64,000 nucleotides of DNA. It comes from Deltaproteobacteria bacterium (GTDB lineage Bacteria; Myxococcota_A; UBA9042; PHBI01). Position 1 is the stretch's first letter, and each line of letters starts with the position of its first letter. Location: positions 307 through 64,306 of the forward strand of contig SBGO01000716.1 of assembly GCA_006226565.1 (NCBI GenBank), read 5' to 3'. Made by a program: the position numbers and the translations under genes. Below the pieces are notes generated by a model that searched no databases, was not told the DNA's origin, and worked only from the letters and a program-made list of their open reading frames with translations. This document shows, piece after piece, positions 34,475 through 64,000 of the stretch.

Positions 34475-37887
<3,413 letters not shown>

Positions 37888-41371: not shown

Positions 41372-41423
41372 GGGCAGCGGCGATGAGCTACGGCAGAGGC
41401 ATCGACGTCCGGGGAGGCGAGCG

Positions 41424-46510: not shown

Positions 46511-46525
46511 ATCGTGGGTTGAAGC

Positions 46526-49135
46526 ATGTCCCGCTGGATCTCCCTTTTCCTGCTGCTCCTCTTCTCGCTCGCACCGAGCGCCGATGCGCGCGCCGTCCCT
46601 CCCGGAGTGCCCTACACCGGCCATCTCGTGGACGGCGGCGGTGCGCCATTTAGTGGCCTCACCGACGTCGAGGCAACCGCCTTTGCCACCGCCGATTCGG
46701 GGGCGCCGATCTGGGGCCCAATCGTATTCGCTGCCGTCACGGTGGAAGGAGGACGCTTCGAAGTGGTCCTCGACGCTGTCGATGCACCGCTCGCCGATGC
46801 GCTTCAAGGCCTCGACAGTGCGTACTTCGCGTTCCGTATCCGGCCCCAGGGCCAGGACTGGATCGCCCTGGAAGGCAGGCAGCGTCTGGGTTCTGTCGGG
46901 TTTGCGTATCAGGCTGACAACGCCGAGCGACTCGGCGGCGTAGACGCGGCGGACTTTCCGACCGCGGCCGAAATGGACGGGGTCTACGCGAAGGCGAGCG
47001 GCCTCGCCTCCGTCGCCGCAAGTGGCGACTACGCCGACCTGACCGGCCGGCCGAACCTGTCTGGCTATGCGCTCACGAACGACCTCGCGGGCGTGTGCTT
47101 CTCCGGCTCCTACGACGACCTCGTGGACCAGCCGAACCTCGCAGTCTTCGTGACGACAGACGCCCTCGCGATAGTGGCGACGAGCGGGAACTACAGTGAC
47201 CTAATCAACCGCCCGGACCTCTCCGTCTACGCACTGACTGCGGACGTTGCCATGGTCGCAACGACCGGTCAGTACACCGATCTCGCCGGCAAGCCCGACC
47301 TCAGCGTCTACGCGACGACGTCGTCGCTCGCCACGGTCGCGACCACAGGAGACTACCTCGACCTCATCGGCGCGCCCGACCCCAACGCCTTCGTCCAGCG
47401 TGACGGCAGCAAGGCGCTGATCGGCGACCTGGACCTCGACCGTCACGTAGTGCTCAACGCGGCGCTCCACCCGAGCCCGACCGCCCCGGCCAATCCGTCC
47501 ATCGGCCAGGGCTGGTTCGACACCGCGAAACAGAGCCTCATGGTCTACACCGACACCGGCTGGCAGCCCGTCGGCGGCCCCGTCGCGCTCCCGGATGACG
47601 GCCTCGCGGCTGTCTCCAACGGCGTCCTGACCAATGTGTTCACCTCCACGGTCGCGAGCGACACCCTCCCTCTGGACATCCCCGACAACTATCCGCCCGG
47701 CGTCGTGGCGAGCCTGACCATCGACGACAGCGGCACGCTCCGCTCCCTGTCGGTCCACGTCGCCATCACTCACCCGGACGCCTCCGAACTCCTGGTCGTA
47801 CTTACCGTGCCCGGCGGTCAGCAGTTCGCCCTCCACGACGGCGGTCTTGGAACGACCGGCGGCCTGGACGCCGTCTGGCCGCCGACGGGGCTTGTGACTG
47901 GGGACCTCGCGTCCCTTCGGGGGATTTCGCCGAGCGGAACGTGGACGGTCTCGGTCATCGATGGCGTGTACTCTGGCGGAGCCCCAGGGAGCGTGGTGGG
48001 AACGGTCGACGCGTTCGAAATGACCTACGACATCTTGCGGGACGGCGAAGCTGAGGTCGGTGGAACGCTGACGGTCGACGGGCGAGACGTCGGCACAGAG
48101 GTCGCCACGTTGCGCGCAGCGCTCGGCGAGCTTCGCCAACGAATAGACGAGTCCTGGTGCTCCGCGAACTGTGGCCCCTTGACCTTCGGGAACGGCTGCA
48201 CAGAGCCTCTGTGCGATGGCATCGGCCACAGCTGTGGCCCGGGCAACGCCAAGCTCGACTTTGCTCCGTGCTCGGAAGGAGCCTGTATCGCAGGCGAGTG
48301 CCTCCCTCCCTGTGGCCAACTTGGTGTCCCCTGCCCGTCAAGCTTCGCATGCACCCCGGATGGCAACTGCGAGAACCCCACCACCGGTGAGGTGCGCATA
48401 CCGGCCGGGACGTTCTGGATGGGCTGCAACAGTACGCTGGACGCGGAATGCAACAGCGACGAACTCGCCCAACACGAAGTGACCCTGCCGACCTACACGA
48501 TCGACCGTCAGGAGGTCACCGCAGCGGAATACAAGGTTTGCGTCGAGGCAGGAGCCTGCTCGCTGCCCTCTACGACGGGTGGCGACTACGGCAACTATGA
48601 CGTTGCGATCAGGCAGGGGCATCCGATCAACTTCGTCACCTGGAGCCAAGCGGCCGAATACTGCGCGTGGGACGGCAAGGCGCCTGCTACCCAGCGACTC
48701 TGCACGGAGGCTGAGTGGGAGCGGGCTGCCCGCGGCGGGTGCGAGACGATCGACGGAGACTGCAAAACGGGCATGCGCAAGTACCCGTGGGGTCAAGTAG
48801 ATCCGACCTGCGACTACTCCAACTTCAGAATAGACAATGGGGGCTACTACTGTGAGCCGGGGGGACGGACGGCTCATGTTGGGAGCCACCCCGCCGGTGA
48901 TTCGCCCTATGGTGTTCAAGACATGGCAGGCAATGTAGCGGAGTGGGTTGGCGACTGGTATTCGTCATCCTACGCAGCGGACCCCGTCACCGCTCCCTTG
49001 GGCCCGGCCACTGGCACCGCTCGTTTCGCGCGCGGTGGTGGTGGTGCGAGTTTCGCCAGCAGCTTACGCTGTTCTGCGCGTCCCACCGGAGTTGGAGCGC
49101 CGTGGATAGGGTTTCGGTGCTGCAGATCTTGGTAG
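46526..49135 (+). CDS. Paralog 3 of the tail-fibre-repeat/P-domain/FGE protein
   Basis: Signal peptide MSRWISLFLLLLFSLAPSADA. Same repeats, P-domain and FGE motifs. Confidence 0.75.
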   Translation: MSRWISLFLLLLFSLAPSADARAVPPGVPYTGHLVDGGGAPFSGLTDVEATAFATADSGAPIWGPIVFAAVTVEGGRFEVVLDAVDAPLADALQGLDSAYFAFRIRPQGQDWIALEGRQRLGSVGFAYQADNAERLGGVDAADFPTAAEMDGVYAKASGLASVAASGDYADLTGRPNLSGYALTNDLAGVCFSGSYDDLVDQPNLAVFVTTDALAIVATSGNYSDLINRPDLSVYALTADVAMVATTGQYTDLAGKPDLSVYATTSSLATVATTGDYLDLIGAPDPNAFVQRDGSKALIGDLDLDRHVVLNAALHPSPTAPANPSIGQGWFDTAKQSLMVYTDTGWQPVGGPVALPDDGLAAVSNGVLTNVFTSTVASDTLPLDIPDNYPPGVVASLTIDDSGTLRSLSVHVAITHPDASELLVVLTVPGGQQFALHDGGLGTTGGLDAVWPPTGLVTGDLASLRGISPSGTWTVSVIDGVYSGGAPGSVVGTVDAFEMTYDILRDGEAEVGGTLTVDGRDVGTEVATLRAALGELRQRIDESWCSANCGPLTFGNGCTEPLCDGIGHSCGPGNAKLDFAPCSEGACIAGECLPPCGQLGVPCPSSFACTPDGNCENPTTGEVRIPAGTFWMGCNSTLDAECNSDELAQHEVTLPTYTIDRQEVTAAEYKVCVEAGACSLPSTTGGDYGNYDVAIRQGHPINFVTWSQAAEYCAWDGKAPATQRLCTEAEWERAARGGCETIDGDCKTGMRKYPWGQVDPTCDYSNFRIDNGGYYCEPGGRTAHVGSHPAGDSPYGVQDMAGNVAEWVGDWYSSSYAADPVTAPLGPATGTARFARGGGGASFASSLRCSARPTGVGAPWIGFRCCRSW

Positions 49136-49187: not shown

Positions 49188-50648
49188 TCACCGCTTCTTT
49201 GATCGCTTCGCGACGATCGCCGCGTTGTCGTTGAGTCGCGCCACGAGCTGCCCGGTCGTTGCCTTGCTCACAGAGGTCACGCCGGCAGCGGCCAGCGCCT
49301 CGGTGATCTCTCGCGCCCGCACCGGGCGGTTCTCCGCGTAGGCTGACGCGGCGAGGTCCGCCAGCGCCTCCGCGACGGATTCCGCGTAGTTCCCCGGGAG
49401 CTCGGAGAGAACCGAAGACGCTTTGGTCTTGAAGTGCGTGAAGAGGCCCGGGTCGGCGCGAAGCCGATCTCCGCGATGGTTGACGGCCCACTTGCCGAGC
49501 CGCGAGCGCCGCGGCGCGTTGGCGTCGACCGCCCCGGACATCATGCCGCCCGCGAGCGACGTCAGGATCTTCGTTCCGAACCGCTGCTGCGCAGCGGCGA
49601 ACTCCGCGCCTGGGTCGGCCTTCCACCGCTCCTTCGCTGCCGGGTCGAAGGCCCAGGCGTCGACCTCCTCGACCAGAGCCCTGAGCGTACCGATGACCTC
49701 GGCCTTCGCTCCCTCTTTCAGGGCCAGCTCGGCTGCGCGAAGGAGCCAGCTCTTCGAGGTCTTCGCGATCGCACCCGGGCTCAGGTGAGCGAGCTTGTTC
49801 ACACTAGGGCTCGCCCCGAGCAGCGCGAAGCCGCCCTCGATGAGCCCCTTTCGGAAGCCCTCGGCGCCCCCGGCGGCGACCTTCTTCCAGTCGACCTTGC
49901 CGTCGGACACCAGCTCTCCGAGCACGGTGCCTCCTGCCTGAACAGCCCCGGCAGCCGTGCCGGCAGCCAACGTCCCCGCGATCGCACCGCCCGCCGTGCC
50001 AAGGACCGGCGCCGCGATGGCCGCGACCGCTGGGGCGGTGAGGATCGCCAGCTCGGCGATGGCGATGTCACGGACGACGGTCGCGACGGCCTCGGCGGTA
50101 GCGAGGTTGTCCGCACGGTGGCCGAGGTAGTCGCTGAACTCCTTCCGGAACCCCTGTCCGAACTCGATGCCCTTCTGGAGCGCGCGCAGCCCCTCGGGGA
50201 TCTTCCCTGCGGCGAGCAGGTGGTTCGCCTTCGTCAGGAGGGTGAACACGTTGTTCCACCGGGAGGCCTCCGGCGCCTTGCGCGCGAACAGCGTCCCGGA
50301 CTTGTACGCGAGCTCGTCCTGGTAGGAGCTTGAGAACCCCTGGAGGACGTGCGCCAGCAGCCGCAGGTTGCGGTCACGGATGCCCTCGAGCTTCGTTGCC
50401 TCCGAAGCCGGGTCCTTGCCTGACGCGGCTGGCTTCGCAGCATTCGCATTCCCCTGCCCTGCCGCCCCGCTCGCCGGCTTCCTCGACTGGTTGGGCTGCA
50501 GGTGCTCGGAAGCCTCGGCATACGTCATCGCACGCAGCTCCGGTCGCACCGGCCCGGCCATCGACTGTTGCGGCGGGACACACATGGGCGCGGAGCTCGT
50601 CTTGCGCTTGAGGATTGACGCGGGATCAAAGAAGGAGCTCATGTTCAC
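49188..50648 (-). CDS. Hypothetical protein with a central Gly/Ala-rich hydrophobic (glycine-zipper-like) segment
   Basis: No recognisable catalytic motif. Hydrophobic stretch AIAELAILTAPAVAAIAAPVLGTAGGAIAGTLAAGTAAGAV. Confidence 0.4.
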   Translation of the reverse strand: MNMSSFFDPASILKRKTSSAPMCVPPQQSMAGPVRPELRAMTYAEASEHLQPNQSRKPASGAAGQGNANAAKPAASGKDPASEATKLEGIRDRNLRLLAHVLQGFSSSYQDELAYKSGTLFARKAPEASRWNNVFTLLTKANHLLAAGKIPEGLRALQKGIEFGQGFRKEFSDYLGHRADNLATAEAVATVVRDIAIAELAILTAPAVAAIAAPVLGTAGGAIAGTLAAGTAAGAVQAGGTVLGELVSDGKVDWKKVAAGGAEGFRKGLIEGGFALLGASPSVNKLAHLSPGAIAKTSKSWLLRAAELALKEGAKAEVIGTLRALVEEVDAWAFDPAAKERWKADPGAEFAAAQQRFGTKILTSLAGGMMSGAVDANAPRRSRLGKWAVNHRGDRLRADPGLFTHFKTKASSVLSELPGNYAESVAEALADLAASAYAENRPVRAREITEALAAAGVTSVSKATTGQLVARLNDNAAIVAKRSKKR

Positions 50649-50703
50649 CTCGCGGCGCCCGGGGCCAGGCCACTCCGCAACATAGCCCGACTCCGCGACG
50701 ATG

Positions 50704-51312
50704 TTAAGGGGCGCGCCGCTGTCTCGGTGAGGCCACGTTCGGGAGGCGCTCGCCTCCTACGATCCACGGAAGCAGCCTGGCGATGTTCCTCGCGTCGTCA
50801 AGTGCGCGATGGTGAGCGCCCTCGAGCTCAAGGCCGACGAGGCGAAGCGCCTTCGCCATGCCGTAGCGCTTGCGACGGCCCTGCGCGGCGGAGAACACGT
50901 TCTTCAGGTTCATGTGCTCCAGCATCGGGTAGTCGACGCCGTGGAAGGCACAGTCCCGCCGGAGCTGCGTGTCGTCGAAGAGCCCCCACGAGCCCCAGAC
51001 CACGCCCCACCGCCCGACGAGCATCGCCTGGCGAAGCGACTCCATCGCCTCGGGGAACGCGGGGGCGTCGGCGAGCATCTCCTGCGAGATGCCCGTCAGC
51101 TCGGTGCAGAACGCTGTCAACGTCGGGTGTCGGACCGGCCGCACGAAGGTCTGGAACTCGGCCTCGGTCGTGAGCGTGCTCGCGCGAACGAGCACGGCGC
51201 CGATCTCGATCGTCTCCATCTCGTCGCGCGGCAGGCTCCCGTCGTCGCTCGTCGTCGCCTCGAGATCGATGACCAGGTAGTGCTTGACCTCACGCAGCTC
51301 GGGGCCGGTCAC
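50704..51312 (-). CDS. DEDDh-type 3'-5' exonuclease (DnaQ-like)
   Basis: Exo I motif [10 protein letters not shown] and Exo III motif [15 protein letters not shown]. The GTG start at 51312 overlaps the upstream ORF stop as GTGA. The long Arg/Gly-rich N-terminal extension in the ORF track is rejected. Confidence 0.65.
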
Positions 51313-51560
51313 AGCTTCTCCGCCAGCCCCGACGCGAGCATCGCGCGGACGAAGGACGCGGCCTTCTCGTCGTCCGTCGCCCCGTCGACCTCGAGGTCGA
51401 CGTCGTTCATCCGCCCTGCCTGGTCCACCGCCCAGTCGATGTACTCCGACAGCGTGCGCCGCTCCTGGCCGAACGCCAGGGCGTGCATCGACTCCGCGAT
51501 CTGCTTCGCCGTCCCCTCGAGCACCCGACCGTCCGCCGTCATCCGAATCCTCATCGCCAC
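51309..51560 (-). CDS. Hypothetical small protein
   Basis: Coding-like composition. Translationally coupled to both flanking genes. Confidence 0.35.
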
Positions 51561-52009
51561 ACCTCCGTCCTGTCACCGTGGTCCAACCAGTCACCGCTCG
51601 CGATGCGCGGCCGCCCGCGCACCTGCGCCGCCGACAGCAAGTAGGCCTGGACCTCCTCGCCGTCCTCGAGCCGGATCGGCCGCCGCTCGTAGAAGCCCGG
51701 GTGCCCCTCGAGGCGGTCGAGCGCCGCGAGCGTCCTCGGCCCGACCTCATAGACCTCCCCGATCACCGCCGTCGCGCCGCCCGGCACCATCGCCGGGAAC
51801 GCGCCCAAGCTCACGAGCTCGAACACGGCCTCGCTCCGCGCGCGCCCTCCAGCGCCAGCCGGAGATCGACCGGGTCGAAGCCCCTCGAACAGCTCCCCAA
51901 AGTAAGACAGCGTTGGCGGCGCAGCGTCCGCCCCCGCCTTCACAGATACGTAGGCGGGTGACGCCGACTGCCGTCGGAAGCCGCCGAAAAGCGCCAGCGA
52001 CCGCCACAA
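51551..52009 (-). CDS. Gamma-glutamyl cyclotransferase-like (AIG2/GGCT fold) protein
   Basis: ...[21 protein letters not shown]...[31 protein letters not shown] resembles the GGCT/BtrG core. The start is uncertain. Confidence 0.55.
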
Positions 52010-52042
52010 CGAGCCGGCGCTTCGCGTCCTCGCTCGCGCCCA

Positions 52043-52483
52043 TCAGGCGCCGCGCACGCTCGCTGCGGCGTCCTCCTCACCGAGGCCGGTCAGATACGCC
52101 GCGAGCGCCTGCCGGAACAGGTCCATCCGACTCTTGAGTCCGTGCCGACGCCAGACCTCGTCAAGCGCCGCCACCGTGTCGGTCGGCAGCCGGAGGGGCA
52201 GCACCTTGTGCTCGACCGCCGCCTCACCGGACGCGCGGCGACCGACTGGCCCGACCGGCACCCGCCCGCGGCGGGCCTCGCGGATCTTCCAGACCAAGTA
52301 GCGGGCGTTGCTGGACCTGGTGGGGCGCCCGACCTCCGCGAGGTAGCGGGCCTGCAGCTCCTCGACCGAGAGCTTCGTCAGCGGGGCGGCGGTGCCGGCC
52401 TCGGCGTCGAGGACGGAGGAAGCCGGGGCGGGCTGGCCGGTGGTGTCGGCGTGGTCGGAATGGCCTGGGACGGCCAGGGTCAT
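52043..52483 (-). CDS. Protein with a DUF2924-like N-terminal segment and a C-terminal ribbon-helix-helix-like region
   Basis: [33 protein letters not shown] resembles the DUF2924 N-terminus (compare [31 protein letters not shown] at 63138+). The C-terminus [39 protein letters not shown] is RHH-like. Confidence 0.45.
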
Positions 52484-52506
52484 CGTGGGTCTCCTGGATG
52501 GTGGTT

Positions 52507-52785
52507 TCAGCGAAGGGCGGCGAAGCAGGCGAGGTCGATGGCCCGCGGGTCACTCGTGACGAAGCTGAAGCGGCCCTCGCGCTCGAGCCAGGGCTGGACC
52601 TCGACGCGGTCGTCGGCGGTGACGCCGCCCGCGCGTGCGAGATCCTCGTCGTCATCGAGGTGCTGGCAGTCGTCGGGGTCGGCGGTGCGCTTGAGGACTG
52701 CGACGATGCGGACCTTGTAGCCGCGAAGGTAGCGGTGCTCGTCGCCGTGGTAGGTAGTGGTCGTGCCGATGACGCCTGCTGGCAT
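52507..52785 (-). CDS. Hypothetical small protein
   Basis: ORF with coding-like composition. No motif. Confidence 0.3.
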
Positions 52786-52900
52786 GGTGTCCCTCGTGGT
52801 GCCCGTTGCGAGGTCACGTTCGCTCTTGTGATCGGCGGGCAGCAAGCTGTGCTTGCGGTAATTGTGTATTAAAACAAGGTGTTGTGGTGGGGCGTGGCCG

Positions 52901-54784
52901 TCACCGGAGCCGCCGCGTGCGGAAGTCGAACCCTCGCGCGGGCACCCTTGTGCGAGCTGGCTCGTGCGGCGCCTCGGGCTCGATTGGCGACAGGCGCATC
53001 CCCATCGCGAGCAGGGACTTGAGCGCCGCCGTCGCGTAGACCCTGCAGTCGAGCGCCTCGTTGCGCCGGTTGTTCGGCTTCCACCAGAAGTGCACGGCGC
53101 GGCCGTTGCGGTAGCGGGTGCGGAGACGTTCGGCCGTCAGCTGCGCGAAGTAGACGTCATCGTTGTGCGGCGTGCTGAAGTGGCAGTAGCCCGGCCCCGC
53201 CTCCTCGACCTGGAGCCGCGCGTTGAGGAGCTCTTTCGCGGTGTCGACCCCGACGGCATAGACATCGAACTTGCCGTTCATCGGCCGCCCGGGACGGTTG
53301 TTCCAGATCGGGTGCGGCGAGTGCGCGGTGTTCGGGACACCCTTCGTGGCCCAGACCCGCCGCTGCCTGCGCTCGCGCGTGAACTCGCACACGCGCTGAG
53401 TCATGAACCCAGCGTCGACACACGTCGCCATGACGCTCACACCCTCCGGCACGTTGGGATGCGGGCGCCGCTCGAGCAGAAGCGCGTCGAGCAGCTGCCA
53501 GACCTCTTGCCCGCCCGGGTCGCCCGCGATCACGCGGTAGTCGAGCGACCACGACTCCTCGTCCACGCCCCAGCCGACGATCTCGACCTCGAGTCGGTCG
53601 CCCTGGACGTCGACGCCTGCCGTGACGAGGCAGACGCCAGCGGGGCAGGTCTTGCCGTAGTCCTCTACACGCCATGCGAGCGAGCTCGGGTCGAGGCTGT
53701 GTCCATCGGCCAGGTCCCAGGTCTCCGCGAGGTCAGTGTTCACGAGCACCCGCTGGAGCGCGGTGTCCTTTGTCCGCGTGGCCTTGACCCAGTCCGCCGC
53801 GATGTCGCCCCAACTCCGCCAGCCGTGCGGGCGGTACAGACCCGAGATGACGTAGCCGGTCACCTTCGGGTTGTTGCTCTCGGTCGTCGGCCGCCACTCA
53901 CCACGCTGCAGCATCCAGTCCTTCTCGTGCTGCTCGATGACGCCCTCGCAGTGTGGGCAGACGTAGGCCGCATCATGCGGCTCGCGGCCGAGCTCGCTCC
54001 ACACGACGTGCTCCCACTCGAGCGTCTGCATCGCCTCGCAGCGCGGACACGGGACGAAGTACTTCCGCTGGTCGGTCGGCGAGAAGCCGAGCTGCTGCTG
54101 CTCGGGCGTCCCGACGAACTCCGCCTCGATGCGCGACGCCCCGCGGACTGTCGGCGTCGAGAAGATCAGGACCTTCCGGTTCGAGAACGTCGCGGTGCGC
54201 TTCAGCGCGAGCGCGACCGGGTCGCCCTCGCCATCAACGTCGGCCGGGTATCCGTCGACCTCGTCGAGCACGAGCCGGCGGATGGCCTTCGACCGCAGCT
54301 CCGCCGCGCTGTTGGCGCCCGTTATGACGAGGAAGCCACCCGGGAACTGCTTGCGCGTCGTCGTCGTGCCGCCACGTCGCGACGTCTGGTCGCCGACGAG
54401 CTCCCGCAGAGCGGGCGTCCCGGAGCAGAGCGGGTTGATGCGGTCCCGGGCGTAGTCGCGCGCCGTGGACCAGGTCGGCTGGACCAGCAGGGCAGGGCCG
54501 GGGTCGAGGTGGATGGCGTGTCCCATCCAGTTCTCCGCGACCGAGGTCAGCCCGAGCTGCGCGCCCTTCATGATCACGACGACCTCGCACGGGTCCTGTG
54601 GCGAGAGCCGGTCCATGATCTCGCGGAGGTACGGCGTCCGTTCGGTGCGCCACGGCCCGGGCTCGGCGGACGTCGTCGGAAGCAGGCGGTGCTTGTCCGC
54701 CCAAGCGCTGACGGTCATGTCCGACGGCGGCATCAGGCCGGCCGCGTATGCCTTCAGACACTCCGCGAGCGGGTCACTGGGCAT
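52901..54784 (-). CDS. Phage terminase large subunit, lambda GpA family
   Basis: N-terminal ATPase region [19 protein letters not shown]...[24 protein letters not shown] and the GpA-type C-terminal nuclease region. Start chosen at ATG 54784, because the upstream part of the ORF is Ser/Arg/Pro-rich. Confidence 0.8.
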
Positions 54785-55307
54785 TGCGGGCGAGCTCTTG
54801 GAGGGCGGTGCGGATCTCGCTGTCCAGCCGGAGGCGCACCTCATGGACGTCGTCGAGGGCGGCGAGCTCGGCCGCGAGTCGGCTCGGGATCGCCATGAAG
54901 CGGGCGCGGAGCGCCGCGGCAACGTCGTACCAGCGCTTGGCGACGTCCTCGGTCTTCAAGTAGGTGCCGGACTTGGTCTCGTACTCGAGCTGGCGCAGGC
55001 GCGCGCGGTAGACGGTGTCGGCGGTCTTGGCCTGGGCGTAGGTGCCGGGCGCCGGGCCGGGCGGGGCTTGCGCCGTGCGCACGGGCGGGGAGGGCGGGAG
55101 CGCCTGCGCTCTGGCTTCGGGAGCAGCTGGCCTCTCAACGCGGGGAGCCCCGTCGGGCTCGCGACCGGCGTTCCACTCCGCCATGACGACGTCCGGATCG
55201 AGCGTCCCGTCCGCCAGCACGCTGAGGCGTCCCGCCTTCACCCGCTTGTTCACGGCCTGAGGCGTGACGCCCATGCGACGCGCCAGCTCCTTCTGCGTGA
55301 TGCCCAC
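54774..55307 (-). CDS. Candidate terminase small subunit (HTH DNA-binding protein)
   Basis: HTH GITQKELARRMGVTPQAVNKRVKAGRL. It lies immediately upstream of the large terminase. The GTG start at 55307 shares one base with the TAG stop of the methyltransferase gene. Confidence 0.45.
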   Translation of the reverse strand: MGITQKELARRMGVTPQAVNKRVKAGRLSVLADGTLDPDVVMAEWNAGREPDGAPRVERPAAPEARAQALPPSPPVRTAQAPPGPAPGTYAQAKTADTVYRARLRQLEYETKSGTYLKTEDVAKRWYDVAAALRARFMAIPSRLAAELAALDDVHEVRLRLDSEIRTALQELARNAQ

Positions 55308-56554
55308 TACAGGACCTCGCCCATCGGGAAGACGGCGCCGTCGCTCTCTCGGACGGCCTCGACGCCGGTGAGCTGGCACCAGCGCCGCACCGCGACGTCC
55401 ACGTAGCGCGGCTCGAGCTCCATCGCGAAGCAGCGGCGCCCGAGCTGCTCAGCGGCGATGATCTGCGTGCCCGAGCCGGAGAACGGCTCGTAGCAGACGT
55501 CGCCCGGGCGGGTGTGCTGCTCCATCGGGATGGCGAACGCCTGAACCGGCTTCGGCGTCGGGTGGTCGCCATCCTCGAGGTCGCGGACGCGCTCGAGACT
55601 CCAGACCGTCCCGCGCATCTTCGTGTCCTTGTTGCGGCGCGGCTTGTGAGGCCGCACCCAGCCCATGAGGCAGGGCTCGTGCTGCCAGGTGTACCAGGAG
55701 TACGTCAGGACGCCCGATGGCTTCGCCCAGATGATCTGCTGGTGGACGAACGCGCCGACCTGCTCCCAGACCGCCTGGAGCTTCGCGTGGTGGACAGACG
55801 CGTACCAACAGTACCAGGCCGCGTCCTCTCGGATGGCGAGCTCGCGCGCCGTTCGACAGAAGCGGAGCCAGAGGTCGTCGTTCCGTTCGGCGTCTGCGTC
55901 GTCCCACTCCTGGTCGTCGTAGCCAACGAGGTACGGCGGATCCGTGGCGAAAAGGACGGCCCGCTCGCCGGCCATGAGGCGCGTGACGTCCTCGGCGGAG
56001 GTGCAGTCGCCGCACAAGAGCCGGTGGTTGCCAAGAACCCAGAGGTCACCCGGCTGCGTGAAGGCTTCCGCCGGTGGGGCAGGGGGGGCGTCCTCGACGA
56101 CCTCGCTGGCGGGCGTCGACTCGGTGGCGAGCAGGTCCCGGAGCGCGTCCTCATCGAACCCGAGGTCGTCGATGTCGAAGCCGTCGACCTGCAGCGAGCT
56201 CATGAGCGCGGCGAGGACCTCCTCGTCCCACTCGGCGAGCTCGGCCGTCCGGTTGTCGGCGATGGCGAAGCCGGTCGCGGTCGTCGCGTCGTCGTCGACG
56301 ATGACCGCGGCGAGGTGACTCCAACCCAGAGCCCGGGCGGCGGCGAGGGTGCCGTTTCCCGCCTCGACCACCATCCCGGCGCGCCGCACGACGATGGGCT
56401 TGCGCTGGCCAAAGCGGACGAGGCTCGCCTTGATGGCGTCGAGGTTGACGTCGGGGTGCTTGCGCGCGTTGGCCGGGTCTTCGTGGAGGTCCGGCAGCGG
56501 CACGGCGAGGTGACGCAGCGGCTCGACGATGAGCGCCGTGGACTCCGTCATCAC
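55307..56554 (-). CDS. ParB-like nuclease domain fused to a DNA methyltransferase (DPPY-type N6-adenine/N4-cytosine)
   Basis: ParB N-terminal domain LRHLAVPLPDLHEDPANARKHP...GNGTLAAARALGW. Methyltransferase motif IV FATDPPY and motif I YEPFSGSGTQIIAAEQLGRRCFAMEL. Confidence 0.8.
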   Translation of the reverse strand: MMTESTALIVEPLRHLAVPLPDLHEDPANARKHPDVNLDAIKASLVRFGQRKPIVVRRAGMVVEAGNGTLAAARALGWSHLAAVIVDDDATTATGFAIADNRTAELAEWDEEVLAALMSSLQVDGFDIDDLGFDEDALRDLLATESTPASEVVEDAPPAPPAEAFTQPGDLWVLGNHRLLCGDCTSAEDVTRLMAGERAVLFATDPPYLVGYDDQEWDDADAERNDDLWLRFCRTARELAIREDAAWYCWYASVHHAKLQAVWEQVGAFVHQQIIWAKPSGVLTYSWYTWQHEPCLMGWVRPHKPRRNKDTKMRGTVWSLERVRDLEDGDHPTPKPVQAFAIPMEQHTRPGDVCYEPFSGSGTQIIAAEQLGRRCFAMELEPRYVDVAVRRWCQLTGVEAVRESDGAVFPMGEVL

Positions 56555-56864
56555 GCCGGCCCCATCGAGCCCTGCCGAGCGATCAACCCGATCAACCGAG
56601 CGCGGTTGATCAACCCGGATTCGGCTCCGTCACAAACGCGGGGTCGCGCTGCCCAAGGTACCCGACCCCCACCCCCCCCAGGGAGGACCCGTGGCCACCT
56701 GGTAGGCGGCTCTGCGAGGTGTCGTCCCCGAGGTTGGGCAAGTGGCCAGGTATCCATCACGTGTGCTCCTCGAGGCGCTCATGCGCCTTCACTCGAGGAA
56801 ACGCGGACCTCAGCGGCCTACTGGGACAGGCTTTTTTTCACATCCTGCTCCTGACCTCTCGTCG

Positions 56865-57138
56865 AGGTTCGGCATAGGTTCGGCGCCAGGTTCGGCAGGT
56901 GAACTTCCATTGATATCGATGTGTTGTGGTGAGGTGCGGAACCTGCGGAACCTCCATGCCACCGATCGCACGGGGGAACTTCTTTTCTTTCGCCGCACGC
57001 ATACGCGAAAAAAAAGTACCTGCGGGGCGGGGGGGCCTGTTGGAGGTTCCGCAGGTTCGGCACGCGATCCAAACGCGTTGAAATTACAGCGAGATGGTGT
57101 GCGGGGCTTGGCTGGGAGGTTCCGCACAGGTTCGGCAC
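56865..57138. repeat. Iteron-like array: 9 copies of AGGTTC(G/C)GCA in both orientations
   Basis: Direct copies at 56865, 56876, 56888, 57044, 57053, 57118 and 57129, and inverted copies at 56935 and 56944. The array is flanked by unusual A/T runs (56830 to 56846 and 57004 to 57020). It lies between the primase 3' end and the methyltransferase 5' end. Confidence 0.7.
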
Positions 57139-57196
57139 GAACGTGCGAGGCGGCTCGCCGCCATCGCCAGGGCTCGGAGTCCAGCGGGACCACCGC

Positions 57197-60118
57197 CTAC
57201 GCGTCGTCGCCGTCACCGATGGGTTGCAGCGCGTAGATCGCACGGTTGTTGCGGTCCCGTGGCATCGCAGCGATGCGGAGAACGCCGTAGACTCGGTCAC
57301 GCGCGTCGTGGAGGGCCCTGCCAAGCCGGGTCTGCTGTGACCGCGATCCTCCCTCGCCTCGGACGCTGGCCATCATGTCGTTCGTCTCGCAGAGCGTGTT
57401 CAGGGATGACACCGTGACCGGCGTCGAGCCGTGGCTCTCCCACCAGGCGCTCGTGAACTGTCTCCACGCGTCGCCTTCGATGTCGGCGGTCGCGTACATA
57501 TCGTCGAGGTTGCCGAGGAAGCCATCGATGCCGCACACGTCGAGGAGGCCCGCCATCTGCACGGCCCACTCTTCGAATGAGCCGAGGTCCGCCGACGGCA
57601 GCCTCGGTCGCCCCGCCGCGATCCAGGCCTGGATGAGCGTCAACGCCGCGTGCACGAGCTCGCTTCGGTGTTCTTTCGCCCAGCCCGTGATGGGCTTGTG
57701 TTTGTAGGTGCGGCCCATCCATGGGCGATCGCGGGCGGCGTCGATCCGAATGGGGATCGAACGTCGCGCAACGTCGACCGCCAGGGACGGGTTGTTCCCG
57801 GTGAGCATCCACAGCGCGTGGTTCGGGTGGGTCAGCATCCGGGTCCGTCCGAGGAGCCGATCGGTCCACTTCGTGGTGGTGAGCACAGCGGCGAGCGACG
57901 GCGCGGCGATCCTCTTATGCTCACGAGCATTGTCGAGAAGGATGATCGGCTGCGCGCGACCGAGCTCTGAGGTGATCATCTTGCGGATCTCATCGTCCTC
58001 TGAGGGGAGGGTGCGAGCCGCGCAGATGGTCCCGGTGACGACGACGGAGACGAGGTTGCAGAGGAGCCCCTTGCCCGTCCCCGCGGTCGGAGACTCCACG
58101 ACGTAAAGCGGGGTCGGGCCATCGATCAGTCGTCGCATGAACGTCTGAAGCACCGCAGCGATGGCGTGGGCACGGTCAGCCTGGCTGACGAACGGGAAGT
58201 CCACGAACAAGTCGTCGACGAAGATGGCCTTGGCTGCGTCGATCTCCGCTGCCGAGGGCTTCTCAGACACCTCGGCCAACAACAGGGTGGGGTCCGTCTC
58301 AAGCCAGAGCTGGTCACTCGCATGCAGGCCTGGTGCCGAGAGAATCCCACCGGCGCGGCCAAACACGGGCGTCGTGAGCACGGTGTCGACAGTGGCGAGC
58401 CCGGCCGGTGGGTAGGCGAGTAGATCCTTCGAGACGTCCTTTGGTGGCGGGACGGCGCGTTCGCCATGCTGGTTCTGCTCGATCCAGTCGGCCTCTCTCG
58501 CCAGAACGCCGTGCATCGCGTCCTCTGTGACCGCGACGACGGTCGCGGCGCCATCGGTCGGCCGGTCGAGGCGGACGAGGGACCTGCCGTGAACGAAAAG
58601 GGGGGCGGCGACGTTCTCAAAGGGAGCGCTGGCGGCGGCGTCGATGCGGCGCGCGTTCGCTGCGGTCAGGACATCCCGGGTCTCGTTCAGGACCTCTCGC
58701 AGCTGCCGGTCGCCGACAACGATCTTGGGTCGTTGTCCCGGGGCGGATGGAGCAGGCGTCGCTTGCCCCCTTGATTGCCCCCTGACTGCCTTGAGGCTCG
58801 CGTTGAGGGCGCGCTTCTTGATTCCGAAGCGCTGCGTGATCGCGTCGAGCACAGCGCCTGTGCGAATCGCAGAGCAACGCTCGAGCGCAGCGAGGACCGG
58901 CGTGAGCTCGCTGTCGAGCTCGTGTGGTGGTGTGTCTTGCGGGATGGCGGCGAGGAGGTACTCGGGGTACGGCAGCGCGTTCGCCATGACCTCTTGGAGT
59001 GCCTCGGGGCTACCAGTCGCGACCAGCTCGTTGACGTCGATCTTCTCCCTGTCTTCGGGACGCGGAATTGTCGCGATGTAGATCTCTCGCCCGGCGTCCC
59101 AGAACGCCGCCGCAGTGGCCCTCGCACCGGCCTCCCCGGAGCCGTTCGCCTCGGAGTCGTTGCAGATGACGACCCGCCGCGCGCGCTGTGTGAGCTTCAG
59201 GAGGCGTGGCACGTCCTTGATCCGGAACTGGATCGTCACCGGTGAGATGCATCGGACACCGGCCTGGCGCGCGCTGATGCAGTCGGTGACGCCTTCCGTG
59301 ATGAGAACCTCGTCGGCCCCCCGTGCAGCATCCTCCTCGTAGAAGTACTCGTTCTGCACCGTGGGCGAGACGTAGCTGTGCTTCTCGGAGTGGGTGAGGA
59401 GCTTCTTGTACTTCGCCTGCTCCCACGACGCCTCCGACGTGCGCTCGGTCCGCCGCGCGATGAAGTAGACGACTCGCCCCCCGCGCCAGTAGGGAAACAC
59501 GAGCCGGCTCTGAAAGAGGTCCTTGATGCCGCTCCTCGTGACCACGAACAGGCCGGTCTTGAGCGCGGCCTCGCGACTCGCCCCGACGGTCGTCGTCAGG
59601 TGCTCGAAGAGGCGGCCGTCCGCCCAGCCGAGCTGCAGCTCGTCGACGGTCTCGTCGGTGAAGCCGTAGTGCTGGCGGTAGTGCGTCTCCCGGATCTCAG
59701 GCAGGAGCGCGCGGTGGTAGTACGCCGCCGCGGCGGTGTGCAGGCGCTCGACCTCGCGTCGCTCGGACAGCTGCTCGACCTCGCGCGCCCACGACTCATC
59801 GTCTTCGTTCAGCCGGCGGACCCCCGCGCGCTCAGCGAGGAGGTGCACCGCGTGCATGAAACCGACTCGCTCGCGCTGCTGGACGTAGTCGAAGACGTCG
59901 CCGCCAAGCCCGCCGCCCCGGGAGAAGTCGTGCCAGGTCCGGGTCTCGGGCCAGACGACGAACGATGGGGTCTTCTCAGGGTGAAAGGGCGAAAGGCCCT
60001 TGAGGGTCGAGCCCGACTCTCGCAAGTCAACATCTGCGCCGATGACCCCTACGATGTCCGAACGCTCACGCACGAGCTCCACGAAGTCCCTGAACTGCGT
60101 GTTGCCGAGCGCGCTCAT
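57197..60118 (-). CDS. Phage/plasmid-type DNA primase (Zn-binding-like N-terminus plus TOPRIM) fused to a C-terminal P-loop domain (DUF3987/D5-like)
   Basis: LKGLSPFHPEKTPSFVV is a CHC2-like primase N-terminus that lacks the Cys residues. TOPRIM motif VLITEGVTDCISARQAG...VVICNDSEANGSG. P-loop YVVESPTAGTGKGLL. Start at ATG 60118, in an ATGA overlap with the upstream small ORF. Confidence 0.7.
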   Translation of the reverse strand: MSALGNTQFRDFVELVRERSDIVGVIGADVDLRESGSTLKGLSPFHPEKTPSFVVWPETRTWHDFSRGGGLGGDVFDYVQQRERVGFMHAVHLLAERAGVRRLNEDDESWAREVEQLSERREVERLHTAAAAYYHRALLPEIRETHYRQHYGFTDETVDELQLGWADGRLFEHLTTTVGASREAALKTGLFVVTRSGIKDLFQSRLVFPYWRGGRVVYFIARRTERTSEASWEQAKYKKLLTHSEKHSYVSPTVQNEYFYEEDAARGADEVLITEGVTDCISARQAGVRCISPVTIQFRIKDVPRLLKLTQRARRVVICNDSEANGSGEAGARATAAAFWDAGREIYIATIPRPEDREKIDVNELVATGSPEALQEVMANALPYPEYLLAAIPQDTPPHELDSELTPVLAALERCSAIRTGAVLDAITQRFGIKKRALNASLKAVRGQSRGQATPAPSAPGQRPKIVVGDRQLREVLNETRDVLTAANARRIDAAASAPFENVAAPLFVHGRSLVRLDRPTDGAATVVAVTEDAMHGVLAREADWIEQNQHGERAVPPPKDVSKDLLAYPPAGLATVDTVLTTPVFGRAGGILSAPGLHASDQLWLETDPTLLLAEVSEKPSAAEIDAAKAIFVDDLFVDFPFVSQADRAHAIAAVLQTFMRRLIDGPTPLYVVESPTAGTGKGLLCNLVSVVVTGTICAARTLPSEDDEIRKMITSELGRAQPIILLDNAREHKRIAAPSLAAVLTTTKWTDRLLGRTRMLTHPNHALWMLTGNNPSLAVDVARRSIPIRIDAARDRPWMGRTYKHKPITGWAKEHRSELVHAALTLIQAWIAAGRPRLPSADLGSFEEWAVQMAGLLDVCGIDGFLGNLDDMYATADIEGDAWRQFTSAWWESHGSTPVTVSSLNTLCETNDMMASVRGEGGSRSQQTRLGRALHDARDRVYGVLRIAAMPRDRNNRAIYALQPIGDGDDA

Positions 60119-60360
60119 CCTGCGTCCTCGTACTGCGTCGCGAGGTCCAGGAGGGACACGATCGCGGGGTGCCGCTGTACTCCAGCCGCTGTCGCGAGGG
60201 GGACGCCTCGGGCTCGCCGGTATGCGCGCTCGAGCCCCGCAGCGACACGGCGGATGGTCTCGTCGTCGGTGCCCTGGACGGCGAAGACGCCGCCCAGCAC
60301 GAGGACGACCTCGCGGAACATCGACGCGAGAGGGTCTCGGGACATGGTAGGGTCGTTCAT
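60115..60360 (-). CDS. Hypothetical small protein
   Basis: Coding-like ORF translationally coupled to the primase gene. Confidence 0.3.
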   Translation of the reverse strand: MNDPTMSRDPLASMFREVVLVLGGVFAVQGTDDETIRRVAAGLERAYRRARGVPLATAAGVQRHPAIVSLLDLATQYEDAG

Positions 60361-60432
60361 GAGCGTGCTCCTCAGGGGTGTGCCCTCGTCTGGGGAGGAA
60401 ACGCGACCTCCAAGGGGCTGAGTGGGACACGT

Positions 60433-61167
60433 TCACGAGGTCCGCCGATACCGTTGCTGGACCTTCCGCTTGGCGCGCTGAAGACGCTTCCGGGCCGCCT
60501 CGTGGGAGACGCCCAGCCGCTCGGCCATGCTGCGCTGGCTCTCGTCATAGATGAGGCAGCCGATGACGAGGTCCGCGTCGTCACCGACCACGTCGGCGAG
60601 TCTCCCGCGGAGCGCCCGCACGTCCTCGTCGGGCTCGAGGCGAATGATGCCGGTCGTATCCTCGGTCGCGACCTCAATGTCAGGCATGTCGGCGCGACGC
60701 TTGTCCTCGTCCCACCGGCGTTTGAGGCCGTCACACAGGTCGCGGGAGACGTTGCGGACGAGCGTGGCGGCGACCCGGTTGACCCGCGTGAGGTCCATCC
60801 TGTGGACCGCTTCGAGGAAGCGGGTGCTGAGCTCGGAGACGAGGGCCTCGGGCTCGCCGGGGAAGTCTCGTCGGCGACGCCGGTGGATGGCGTCGAGTCC
60901 GGGCCAGAGCCCGAGCCAGAGCAGCGTGCGGGCTTGCTCAGCCCGAGGACGGTCGCGGCTCTGCGCCACCTCGATGAGGGAGGCGTAGATGGCGTCCTTC
61001 TCGTCGCGGTCGCCCGTCGGGTCGTTGAGGTACGTGACGAGCGCGGTCGCGCATTGGAACCGCGATAGGTGGTCGTGTCTCTGCAGCTCATCGAACCGCG
61101 ACTTGGATCTCGACGGATCGACCGAACGCTCGAGGCTCTCCTTCAGAGCCTCCCAGGAAGCGCGCAT
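60433..61167 (-). CDS. Sigma-70 family (ECF-like) RNA polymerase sigma factor
   Basis: C-terminal region 4 HTH SQRSMAERLGVSHEAARKRLQRAKRKV and a region-2-like segment. Confidence 0.55.
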   Translation of the reverse strand: MRASWEALKESLERSVDPSRSKSRFDELQRHDHLSRFQCATALVTYLNDPTGDRDEKDAIYASLIEVAQSRDRPRAEQARTLLWLGLWPGLDAIHRRRRRDFPGEPEALVSELSTRFLEAVHRMDLTRVNRVAATLVRNVSRDLCDGLKRRWDEDKRRADMPDIEVATEDTTGIIRLEPDEDVRALRGRLADVVGDDADLVIGCLIYDESQRSMAERLGVSHEAARKRLQRAKRKVQQRYRRTS

Positions 61168-61789: not shown

Positions 61790-62656
61790 TCAGAACCGCT
61801 TCGGCGCGCGGTACTCCTTGAGCTTCGCCAGCGCGGCGTCCGAGAGCGGGCCAGGCTCCCATGCCATGAGCGGCCACGGTCCCGGCGCCGGCAGCAAGTG
61901 GATTCGCTCAGGAGGCAGCAAGGGCTGCTTCGTGTGTCGCTGTCTGAACTCAAGCATGAAGCGCTGCCAGTTGGCTGCCGCGGAAAGAAAGGTGAACAGT
62001 CGGATGGGACTCAGTGGACCCGGTCCCGGCAGCGCCTGCAATCGAGCCTGCATGGCGGCGAAGATGTCCGCATGGAGCATGTAGCTGAGCGTGGCCGCCA
62101 GGTGAGCGACCGGCGCATGCGAACTCCACGCCTTTCGAATGTCCTTTTCGTTCTTGTGCAGGTCGCTGTGGGACTTGGCGAGCCACTCGACGAGGTGCAC
62201 AGCCTTGTTGACGCTCGCCTCTCCTCGGTCGGCGTGGTGCAACGCCATCCGCCGGATCATGTCCAGGATCGTGCCAGCGGTGGCCCAGTCGCGGGACCGC
62301 TTTTCCGCGAACGCGAGCATCGTTGGCAAGCTGTCCGCGAAGGCCACAGCGACGGGGCCTCCATGGGCCTCAAACCGTGCCTGAGCCGATGCACGAGCCT
62401 CTGCTAGCTCCTCACGGAGGCGCTCGGCTGCGGCTCTGTCACCGTTCGCCTCGAGCTTCGCAAGAACGGAGGCGACGATCTCTGCCGAGAAGTCCAAATC
62501 TCGGTGGAGGGCGCGAACGTCCAATGCAGCTTGCGCCGCCAAGAAGGCGTGGCGTGTCACGTCGTCATCTGGCCACGTCAAGTAGGCGCCGATGATGTTG
62601 CCGGCCGCTGAACGGCCAGTGTCTGTGGTGAGGTCGCCGAGTTCGATTGCCGCCAT
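61790..62656 (-). CDS. Hypothetical protein
   Basis: Coding-like 288-aa ORF. No motif recognised. Confidence 0.4.
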   Translation of the reverse strand: MAAIELGDLTTDTGRSAAGNIIGAYLTWPDDDVTRHAFLAAQAALDVRALHRDLDFSAEIVASVLAKLEANGDRAAAERLREELAEARASAQARFEAHGGPVAVAFADSLPTMLAFAEKRSRDWATAGTILDMIRRMALHHADRGEASVNKAVHLVEWLAKSHSDLHKNEKDIRKAWSSHAPVAHLAATLSYMLHADIFAAMQARLQALPGPGPLSPIRLFTFLSAAANWQRFMLEFRQRHTKQPLLPPERIHLLPAPGPWPLMAWEPGPLSDAALAKLKEYRAPKRF

Positions 62657-63137
62657 GGTGTCCGTCCGTCCTTGATGCTGCAGTCGGATGTACCGTAGCG
62701 CGTCGCCATCGTTCAGGCAGTAGCCGGGAAACGCTCTTGTTTTTTCGCGCGACGGCGCGCTGTCCCATTCTCGGGCCCGGCCCTGCGTTTCCTCGGCAGT
62801 TCGTCAACGCCGGAGGATGGCATGGTCCCGATTCAACCTGGGCAGCAGAGCTCGAACGGTCCTTCGCCACGAAACCCCGATTCCGTCCGCTCCGCCCGCG
62901 ACGAAGTCGCCGACGTCCTCGCCGAGGCCCTCTGGAGCTTGATCTGCAGCCGCCGCGGTCTCGAAGGGCAGGGCGGAAGCCGCCGGAAGACCCGGACGAC
63001 CACGACGCGCCACGTCTCGGCCTCACCGCAACCTGTTGAAACACATGCGCTCTGAGACTTGCCTCCGCGCGGAGACGACGCGTCCATGCGCCCACGACGA
63101 GGCGCACGGTGCGCCCCGGGACACCAGGGAGCACCCC

Positions 63138-63683
63138 ATGACAGGGAAGCAGAGCGAGGGCGCGAAGACGCGCCGCGAGATCGCCGACCTCACGCAGCAG
63201 CTGGCGGCGCTGCGCGAGATGACCGTGAACGAGCTCCGTGAGAAGTACCGCGACGTCTTCGGTGAGCCGAGCCGCTCGCGCAACAAGGACTACCTCCGGA
63301 AGAAGGTGGGCTGGCGGATCCAGGAGCTGGCCGAGGGGGGACTCTCCGACCGCGCCAGCAGCAAGATCGAAGCGCTCACGGCGGACGAGCCGCTGCGGTG
63401 GAGGAAGCGGCGCCGCCTGACCGAGCCCACCGCCCACGCCACCGCATCCGACGCGACCGCAGCTACGACGCGTGATCCCCGCCTCCCGGAGCCCGGTACC
63501 GTCCTCACACGCGAGCACGACGGCGTCGAGCACACCGTCACCGTCCTCGACGGCGGCTTCGAGTACGAGGGGCAGCGCTTCAAGAGCCTCTCGAAGGTCG
63601 CCCGCGTCATTACAGGCACGAACTGGAATGGGTTCCTGTTCTTCGGCCTCAAGCGCCGGACGCCGGGCGGGGGCACCACGTGA
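63138..63683 (+). CDS. DUF2924-family protein (the usual partner of large serine recombinases)
   Basis: [32 protein letters not shown] and the C-terminal ...[21 protein letters not shown] match DUF2924 conserved regions. The start is taken at ATG 63138. Confidence 0.7.
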
Positions 63684-64000
63684 GGGGCTTCGGCACAGCG
63701 CTCACGCAGCCGAAGCGGTGCGCGATCTACACGCGCAAGTCGACCGCGATCGGCCTCGAGCAGGAGTTCAACACGCTCGATGCCCAACGGGAGGCGTGCC
63801 TGGCGTACATCCAGCGCCAGGAGCACTGGACGACGACGGACGTCCGCTACGACGACGGTGGCTTCACCGGAGCCAACATCGAGCGGCCCGCCTTCCAGCG
63901 GTTGCTCGAGGACATCGACGCGGGGAAGGTCGACATCGTGGTGGTCTACAAGGTCGACCGCCTCTCCCGCTCGCTCCTCGACTTCGCCCGTGTGATGGAC
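63680..64000 (+). CDS. Large serine recombinase, N-terminal catalytic domain (3' end outside the window)
   Basis: [10 protein letters not shown]...LDAQREAC...[20 protein letters not shown] resolvase motifs. The GTG start overlaps the DUF2924 stop as GTGA. Confidence 0.8.

Follow-up and report, generated by a model that had tools for sequence, protein, structure and literature searches.

Genes and repeats at the primase locus

In the 64-kb stretch of deltaproteobacterial DNA analysed here (the window, at its full length of 64,000 nucleotides), a phage-like element encodes a primase-helicase, and the 3' end of its gene is followed by a compact array of short repeats, or iterons. Beyond the array, in the direction of transcription, lie the genes for a DNA methyltransferase and a large terminase. 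We propose that the array is most probably the iteron replication origin of this element, which appears to be integrated, and that it is read by the winged helix of the adjoining primase-helicase. Among the observations underlying this proposal are the array itself with its statistics, the fixed position of such arrays in related loci, the co-variation of their motifs with the winged helix, their dyad architecture, and the SF3-like fold of the helicase together with its winged helix. Gene strands and assignments were derived from codon-position GC analysis and domain searches, and the iterons from pattern searches. The features at the locus are as follows.

57197..60118, minus strand: primase-helicase gene, 973 aa from Met107 of a 1079-codon open reading frame (ORF) at 57197-60436; Pfam and PHROG matches, translation
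57200..58729, minus strand: C-terminal 510-aa module of this protein, SF3/D5-like AAA+ helicase; AlphaFold2, Foldseek and motifs
57215..57418, minus strand: winged-helix domain at the C-terminus (ORF residues ~1007-1079), comprising three helices and a beta hairpin; putative reader of the iterons
57117..57137, plus strand: outer iteron pair nearest the primase stop, AGGTTCCGCA at 57117-26 and AGGTTCGGCA at 57128-37
57044..57062, plus strand: inner direct iteron pair AGGTTCCGC-AGGTTCGGCA, starts 57044 and 57053, 9-bp period, facing the central spacer
56935..56953, minus strand: inner inverted iteron pair, TGCGGAACC-TGCGGAACCT as read on the plus strand, starts 56935 and 56944
56865..56897, plus strand: distal iteron triple AGGTTCGGCA, AGGTTCGGCG, AGGTTCGGCA, starts 56865, 56876 and 56888
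56731..56740, plus strand: possible tenth iteron, degenerate, AGGTTGGGCA; weak, a single mismatch copy
55307-56554, minus strand: ParB_N-N6/N4 DNA methyltransferase, 3' of the array in the direction of transcription; domain searches
52901-54922, minus strand: gpA-type large terminase, past the methyltransferase; domain searches
60433-61167: sigma-like/helix-turn-helix (HTH) protein, preceding the primase

The window contains eight exact matches to AGGTTCSGCA where 0.21 are expected, all of them within 56865-57137; in 100 dinucleotide-preserving shuffles of the window the count never exceeded 2. A 9-mer search added the ninth copy, AGGTTCGGCG at 56876-56885, which matches at 9/10 positions. The nine-copy consensus is AGGTTC(G/C)GC(A/G), and the array is confined to 273 bp, with 310 nt separating it from the methyltransferase start. 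These results bear out the preliminary description of the locus, made from the letters alone, which had placed nine copies between the primase and the methyltransferase-terminase genes, both direct and inverted, with adjacent pairs and a 9-bp period; its gene assignments were also correct. The search for the 10-mer elsewhere that it had suggested located every exact copy of the 64-kb window inside the array, and no second array of the 10-mer was found in the window by pattern search. A related 9-mer, AGGTTCGGC, occurs twice, exact and 81 bp apart, on the minus strand inside an FGE-sulfatase gene (47050-47058 and 47131-47139), with single copies at 9687, 13993 and 44120; these are without the tenth base of the origin iteron and are probably chance or coding repeats.

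Read in the direction of the primase gene, the iterons are ordered (- -)(- -) | spacer | (+ +)(- - -). The two inverted copies at 56935 and 56944 have one base in common, giving a 9-bp period, and face the spacer from the methyltransferase side; they oppose the direct copies at 57044 and 57053 across 90 bp. The array thus consists of two sets that flank a centre, with at least two iterons per side in opposite directions. Its nine copies begin 59 nt past the primase TAG stop, where origins of Staphylococcus aureus pathogenicity islands (SaPIs) and phage-inducible chromosomal islands (PICIs) carry 6-12 iterons directly 3' of the initiator ORF.

Other searches of the locus returned little. Among 50,697 phage records, blastn found nothing similar to the intergenic region; the Rfam scan, over 55000-58500, returned just a sub-threshold riboswitch match inside the primase gene; and a promoter/terminator scan found no sigma-70-like promoter at the locus and one terminator-like hairpin, on the plus strand, which is gene-free here. 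GC skew is uninformative for an element of ~15 kb.

The primase-helicase as putative initiator

The 973-aa primase product was also called in an independent assembly. Its N-terminal part comprises a CHC2 zinc ribbon, a DnaG core and a Toprim domain (Pfam), followed at the C-terminus by the SF3-like helicase and the winged helix. By sequence the C-terminal module gave no Pfam match and, with phmmer, no PDB match at E up to 10. It does carry the motifs of its fold: Walker A (AGTGKG), Walker B (ILLDNA), a sensor (TGNN) and a twin arginine (ARRS), of which the Walker A, the Walker B, the sensor Asn and the twin Arg are invariant in 32 homologues. An AlphaFold2 model of the module (predicted local distance difference test score, pLDDT, 91; predicted template modelling score, pTM, 0.84) was compared with the PDB by Foldseek. 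The top matches, with E from 1e-7 to 1e-5, were PrimPol of African swine fever virus (ASFV), Pri-Rep of SaPI5 (7OLA), PriRep1 (7PDS, with dsDNA), E5/D5 of monkeypox virus (MPXV) and vaccinia virus (VACV), and the NrS-1 CTR.

The window protein therefore joins an SF3 (D5-like) helicase to a primase and ends in a winged helix, as the initiators of SaPI/PICI origins do. The preliminary description had taken the array for an origin bound by an initiator or primase, a view that the comparative and structural evidence supports; its candidate binder has to be exchanged, in that the C-terminal winged helix is the likely reader and not the N-terminal zinc-ribbon/primase domain. Homologues of the C-terminal module are joined to varied primase types (DnaG-type, PrimPol, NrS-1-type and DUF3854); the contigs that carry the module, from uncultivated phages and prophages of Planctomycetota, Chloroflexota and other phyla, number in the hundreds. 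The proposed role as a replication initiator with its own origin would give a function to this large module, for which sequence searches of Pfam and the PDB returned no match.

Arrays in related loci

To see related loci, 80 were collected from viral contigs, 80 from metagenomes and a few via exact-protein look-ups. The metagenome loci were retrieved with 6 close relatives as query; a single protein query found no match among the viral contigs, where an alignment query was needed. The closest relative has 59% identity, and none closer was found among the viral contigs and metagenomes searched. In each locus with at least 700 nt of downstream sequence, the densest cluster of repeated 8-mers was located without a prior motif. 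In 141 of the 160 loci the top cluster (at least 5 copies, both orientations) starts between -200 and +1500 nt from the end of homology, against ~42 loci expected under uniform placement, and the median start is +65 nt. The clusters usually hold 7-14 copies in both orientations and are 250-330 bp long.

The 10-mer itself recurs at such positions. When viral contigs were scanned for the exact double iteron, closely similar arrays of the 10-mer, direct and inverted, turned up in loci L087 (9 copies), L068, L053 and L090. In these and in L029, a Dehalococcoidia metagenome-assembled genome (MAG), the array stands directly past a homologue of the last ~510 aa at 24-37% identity (tblastn). Arrays of the AGGTTCCGCA type directly past homologous genes were seen in the unrelated contigs L029, L053, L087, L090, L182, L184 and L194. 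Most of the 38 matches to the 19-nt double-iteron pattern in viral contigs were single chance matches or coding repeats with a 9-bp period (L060, L067) and were set aside; the matches kept were those that adjoin a primase homologue.

The scheme of the window, with 2-3 iterons at a 9-bp period opposed over a spacer of 56-112 bp, is repeated in relatives. Locus L152, for example, reads (- - +)(- - -)|(+ + +)(- -)(+ +), and L182 reads (- - - +)(- -)|(+ +)(- - - +). An organisation of two iteron sets around a centre, 3' of pri-rep, is widespread in these viruses. The array lies 0.3 to 3.5 kb from the methyltransferase or terminase, depending on the locus, and is retained in relatives whose locus lacks these genes or the sigma-like gene.

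Co-variation of iterons and winged helix

The repeats are specific to lineages, with motifs such as AGGTTCAC, ACGTTCCC, GGTCCCCA, GTCCCGCA, GATCCCGA, AGGTACCC, ACATTCAC, AGGTATGC and GCCCGGCA, among others. The closest relative of the window, L096/L177 (59% identity), has the iteron TGCCGGGCA; L182, L184 and L194 (53% identity) have TGCGGAACA in the same layout as the window, and L094 has AGGTATGCG. Among 43 dereplicated loci, iteron similarity follows winged-helix identity when the helicase core is controlled for (partial r 0.34, permutation p ~0.0005), whereas the reverse partial correlation with helicase-core identity is -0.14. This correlative evidence suggests that the iteron sequence is specific to its cognate initiator, and the loci offer ready-made pairs of iterons and winged helices for specificity studies.

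The central spacer

The preliminary description had pointed out A/T runs and G/C homopolymers between the iterons. These runs are present, as listed below together with the other features of the spacer.

56954..57043, no strand: central spacer, 90 bp, GC 0.60 vs 0.69 locally; proposed zone of melting and helicase loading
57024-35: G-run in the central spacer
57008-15: A-run in the central spacer, within gaaaaaaaag at 57007-57016
56994-57007: alternating purine-pyrimidine tract CGCACGCATACGCG in the central spacer
56980-56991: T/C run ttcttttctttc in the central spacer
56831-56839: ctttttttc run, outside the central spacer

The A/T runs make up just part of the centre, however, and the conserved element is a pyrimidine run followed by an alternating purine-pyrimidine tract and then a purine run; the framing runs include C/G homopolymers, ttcttttctttc and aaaaaaaa. 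The 14-nt alternating run of the window spacer was exceeded in 0 of 300 random windows. In 60 distinct related spacers the longest such run has a median of 19 nt, compared to 6.4 in random windows of the same loci, with p<=0.05 in 80% of the spacers, and their GC content has a median 9.5 points under that of their locus. The alternating tracts in relatives reach 40 nt (e.g., TACGCGCACGCGCGCGCACGCGCGCACGCGCGCACGTGTA in L125), and the spacer region of L094 (7966-8090) also has a palindromic A7T5/A6T5 pair. Such alternating tracts may be melting elements prone to form Z-DNA or cruciforms.

By nearest-neighbour free energy, the array region holds some of the least stable DNA of the window (top 0.1-0.2% of 30-, 50- and 100-bp windows). 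The least stable 30-mer lies outside the central spacer, in an unusually AT-rich patch at 56897-56927 between the distal triple and the inner inverted pair.

Probable origins inside the initiator ORF

In most relatives the primase ORF runs on past the winged helix and through the whole array, to a stop 290-430 nt past the first iteron. These long-form primases end in a conserved acidic-aromatic peptide, e.g., ..VDLADF.., ..PDWLRELDP or ..AWLEDVP. In a minority that includes the clade of the window, the ORF stops before the array and an acidic tail (..GGVDPW) follows directly past the winged helix. The stop of the window primase is a TAG at 57197-57199, and beyond this codon the frame runs on for 128 codons without a stop, through the array (56810-57196, minus strand). 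Eight codons past the TAG lies the motif LDSEPW, similar to the (V)DPW tail that close relatives conserve at the C-terminus. The TAG and the open frame could be due to readthrough, to a nonsense mutation of recent date, or to chance, with a probability of ~5% for the open frame taken by itself.

One might suppose from the open frames that the repeats are a relic of coding repeats for a repetitive C-terminal linker of the primase, with no function at the DNA level. The reading through to the acidic tail in most relatives and the 128 open codons of the window would agree with this. Yet the long-form relatives read the array in different frames by lineage (AEP and CEP vs GNL), and the iteron copies encode unrelated peptides because both orientations occur. 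Moreover, arrays are kept equally well where they are non-coding (window, L087, L182, L121, L123, L125), and neither the dyad geometry nor the composition of the spacer has a rationale at the protein level. We consider a mere coding relic very improbable.

A bolder extension of the origin reading, which we hold to be unlikely, is that these loci represent a widespread, undescribed variant of self-loading SF3 origins in high-GC uncultivated phages. Such a variant would open at an alternating tract prone to Z-DNA or cruciform formation, set between pyrimidine and purine runs, in place of an AT-rich unwinding element, and its origin would normally be translated as the disordered linker of its own initiator, before the conserved acidic-aromatic tail. 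If so, replication and initiator expression would be physically coupled, and the TAG, the 128 open codons and LDSEPW of the window could be programmed readthrough yielding two isoforms, not decay.

A promoter-like element and further repeats beside the array

Between the array and the methyltransferase gene lies a conserved element that contains no iteron:

56757..56833, minus strand: promoter/leader-like element, separate from the iterons; conservation at the DNA level

It reads GCCTGTCCCAGT-N11-GTCCGCGTTTCCTC, followed by a hairpin GGCGC-N4-GCGCC, a Shine-Dalgarno-like GAGGAG and a start codon. Across 5 relatives with helicase modules 53-59% identical, 48 columns of its ~75 nt are invariant, and it is kept in L182, L184, L096 and L180. 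It probably provides the first gene past the proposed origin with a late promoter and leader, and could be the late promoter meant by the preliminary description. It makes a better candidate than the iterons for a late promoter that depends on a sigma factor, and it is a candidate target of the sigma-like protein at 60433-61167. The proposed origin would mark the end of the replication module and the start of the late module in the window.

Just upstream of the GTG start of the ParB-methyltransferase, at 56581-56615, GATCAACC occurs three times in direct orientation together with a perfect 12-bp palindrome, GGTTGATCAACC. The window holds five GATCAACC copies where 1.3 are expected, and four of them are found here. 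Possible roles are those of an operator, a packaging signal or a GATC site sensitive to methylation.

Proposed mechanism and alternative functions of the array

Binding, melting and origin activity at the array are what we infer from these data, and the window copy may still be active. In the model, monomers of the primase-helicase would bind the 10-bp iterons through their winged helix, and the inward-facing pairs at 56935-56953 and 57044-57062 would nucleate two hexamers on either side of the 90-bp spacer; both steps have indirect support. The outer copies may increase local occupancy. By analogy with SaPI Pri-Rep and P4 alpha, the spacer with its T/C run, alternating CG/CA tract and A-run would be distorted and melted. 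The helicases would then self-load without a separate loader, again by analogy, and the fused DnaG-type primase would prime bidirectional theta replication.

Several points weigh against an origin. No array was found in seven relatives (L091, in context L091/P0002, L100, L132, L139, L155, L185 and L188) nor beside the distant homologues of the cultured phages phiCbK and RpAliso (27-31% identity). The loci behind the co-variation share ancestry and are phylogenetically non-independent, and the alignment of iteron registers is approximate. The identical 10-mer adjoins helicases whose winged helix is just 15-39% identical to that of the window, and specificity is therefore not simply set by overall domain identity. 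With a GC content of 0.60, the central spacer is not truly AT-rich. The element looks decayed (no portal or capsid genes, a low-GC3 gene past the origin, an in-frame TAG before a conserved tail motif, GC3 being the GC content at third codon positions), so the window copy may be a relic. Finally, the replication and packaging modules meet at the array, and such a junction could also harbour a cos or pac site.

This last point leads to the alternative that a small terminase binds the repeats as cosB- or pac-like sites and that the DNA is cut in the symmetric spacer, for packaging by the gpA-type terminase encoded 2 kb downstream; the repeats might have this role beside that of an origin. The position upstream of the methyltransferase-terminase block would suit a packaging site, one viral contig (L068) begins inside a homologous array, and the spacer has partial dyad symmetry, as has cosN of lambda. 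On the other hand, the arrays track the 3' end of the primase while their distance to the methyltransferase or terminase varies; in L094 the array stands among recombination genes with no terminase within 2.5 kb; most relatives carry it inside the primase reading frame; and changes in its motifs go along with changes in the winged helix of the primase. Almost every contig continues through the array without a break, and no small-terminase gene was identified beside it. A lambda-type cos site, which stands immediately 5' of such a gene and at the genome termini, was also considered and is not supported, no such gene being adjacent and the array being fixed to the primase 3' end. All in all, a packaging site is improbable. 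We judge it a little less probable still that the repeats are operators or promoter elements through which a phage regulator, e.g., the sigma-like protein at 60433-61167, would activate the late methyltransferase-terminase operon. The late genes do lie downstream of the array, on the same strand, the clade of the window has kept the sigma-like gene, and a conserved promoter-like element follows directly downstream of the array; in the gene direction the 10-mer contains GGAAC, which we presume to resemble -35 elements of the extracytoplasmic function (ECF) type. Nine copies in both orientations with dyad symmetry are nevertheless not the architecture of a promoter, the promoter scan was negative for the sigma-70 type, and the conserved promoter-like element is separate from the iterons. 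The multi-operator promoter for the sigma factor that the preliminary description had offered as its second option is not supported for the iterons, as arrays persist without a nearby sigma-like gene or methyltransferase and lie mostly inside the primase ORF.

The ParB_N domain of the adjoining ParB-methyltransferase fusion raises the further question whether the array is a partition (centromere-like) site, since this protein is encoded 310 bp away and the centromeres of plasmids and phages are often arrays of short direct and inverted repeats. Against this, arrays occur without an adjoining ParB-methyltransferase in L094, L097 and L106, their position follows the primase and not the methyltransferase, and the start of the methyltransferase gene is adjoined by a different repeat, GATCAACC. 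ParB_N-methyltransferase fusions are widespread phage methylases, for which we know of no centromere role. A partition site thus has very little probability, about as little as the coding relic discussed above, and an origin read by the winged helix of the primase-helicase remains the function that we prefer for the array.

The surrounding element

The remaining features of the element and of its surroundings are listed here.

62943-63683: DUF2924 protein near the window end
56551-56760, minus strand: 69-codon ORF between the origin and the methyltransferase, overlapping the methyltransferase start (GTGA)
34474-37917: SNF2 helicase, defence-like cluster
29996-34741: Eco57I/MmeI-type N6 methylase, defence-like cluster
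28271-29962: GmrSD_N protein, defence-like cluster
26560-28254: Schlafen/AlbA_2 protein, defence-like cluster
20779-26463: DEAD helicase fused to an MZB/DUF1998 domain, defence-like cluster
15032-18697: TIR-SLOG-CHAT protein, defence-like cluster

DUF2924 proteins are usually paired with a serine recombinase. The 69-codon ORF has a GC3 of 0.66, against 0.85-0.9 for real genes here, and includes a poly-G/poly-C run (56666-56679). It is probably a decayed gene, and relatives have a small Cys-rich protein at the same position. Directly past the homologous origin in L087 (2725-2922) and L068 (~195-400), a zinc-ribbon protein of 65 aa with CxxC...CxxC is encoded, which presumably resembles the Ogr/Delta late activators of P2 and P4.

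Past the terminase, a survey of genes and domains that covered the element at 49188-54922 and 61790-64000 found no portal, protease or capsid genes; the genes that follow encode an RHH protein, a GGACT enzyme, an RNase T-like exonuclease and a 522-aa protein without known function. From ~49 kb the genes are host-like, with three FGE-sulfatase paralogues and a Ser/Thr kinase. Because of the lack of portal and capsid genes past the terminase and of these host-like genes, the element is judged to be a small prophage-like island that is probably defective; it looks like a truncated prophage or a satellite-like island. The three tandem paralogues (40806-49135) each combine a proprotein-convertase P domain with an FGE-sulfatase domain and lie beside the Ser/Thr kinase and a PEGA/TPR protein. 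This region is host-like, with a GC3 of 0.77-0.79, under that of its neighbours. The genes at 15032-37917 form a cluster similar to a defence island, whose make-up resembles DISARM.

Comparison with known replication systems

The closest parallels to the proposed origin are found in SaPIs and PICIs. The SaPI Rep protein reads its iterons via a C-terminal winged helix, and 6-12 iterons lie directly past the rep ORF; the two halves of the set are parted by an AT-rich centre, with at least two iterons per side in opposite directions, and Rep is a self-loading helicase of which probably one hexamer assembles on each side (Ubeda et al., 2007, 2012, summarised in PMC9371898). PICIs of Gram-negative bacteria share this origin organisation, function of their pri-rep-ori has been demonstrated, and the two-set organisation 3' of pri-rep has been described as common to PICIs but known from no further bacterial replicon (Fillol-Salom et al., 2018, PMC6092414). 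On the sequence level, the window array has every feature expected of a SaPI/PICI origin except a clearly AT-rich centre. In both, the primase forms one protein with, or neighbours, an SF3-like helicase that ends in a winged helix; iterons of element-specific sequence, 6-12 in number, follow directly 3' of rep, in two sets that flank a centre with opposed directions; and the genes are ordered as regulators, pri-rep, ori and packaging genes. The window differs in its longer iterons (9-10 bp compared to 5-6 bp) and in its centre, which is just ~9 GC points under the local average, is dominated by the alternating tract and has no AT-rich block. Its helicase is without similarity to SaPI Rep at the sequence level (8-12% identity in structural alignments, TM-score ~0.4), its host, an uncultivated bacterium, has high-GC DNA, a large terminase is encoded on the element, and most relatives of its primase have the origin inside the initiator ORF.

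In phage P4, the alpha protein unites a DnaG-type primase, an SF3 helicase and a winged helix in one polypeptide (PMC2777425). According to the annotated P4 record, crr begins 46 nt past the alpha stop and holds ten 8-bp type-1 repeats (GGTGAACA/TGTTCACC); these point in both directions, and adjacent copies form pairs with a 9-bp period. The window resembles P4 in the domain set of alpha, in the place of crr just past the alpha stop, in the repeat orientations and in the pairs with a 9-bp period. The GTGAAC core also resembles some motifs of the family (TGTGAACCT, GGTGAACGT), which may be coincidence. However, P4 needs two separate cis sites (ori and crr) where the window shows one array, its crr consists of two 120-bp direct repeats instead of a single dyad, and no homology between the window protein and alpha was detectable by sequence beyond the Toprim region of the primase.

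More distant likenesses exist with other replicons. At the origins of SV40 and papillomaviruses, inverted initiator sites flank or adjoin an easily distorted element, and two SF3 hexamers unwind the DNA bidirectionally. The window shares with these core origins the inverted sites by a distortable element and, in our model, the loading of an SF3 double hexamer; they belong, however, to eukaryotic viruses, and their origin-binding domain has another fold than the winged helix and precedes the helicase in the protein. The ori of lambda lies within gene O, just as the iteron origin of most relatives lies inside the coding sequence of the initiator, in a low-complexity linker. In the window itself, however, the array is downstream of the stop. 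Lambda O has no helicase function of its own and depends on P and DnaB.

In summary, the kind of origin proposed here is already known from SaPIs, PICIs and P4. New are the initiator family, which has no Pfam family and no relative of solved structure by sequence, yet is widespread; the GC-rich centre with its alternating tract; and the frequent embedding of the origin in the initiator ORF. The primase-helicases and their arrays are candidate minimal replicons for genetically intractable high-GC bacteria.

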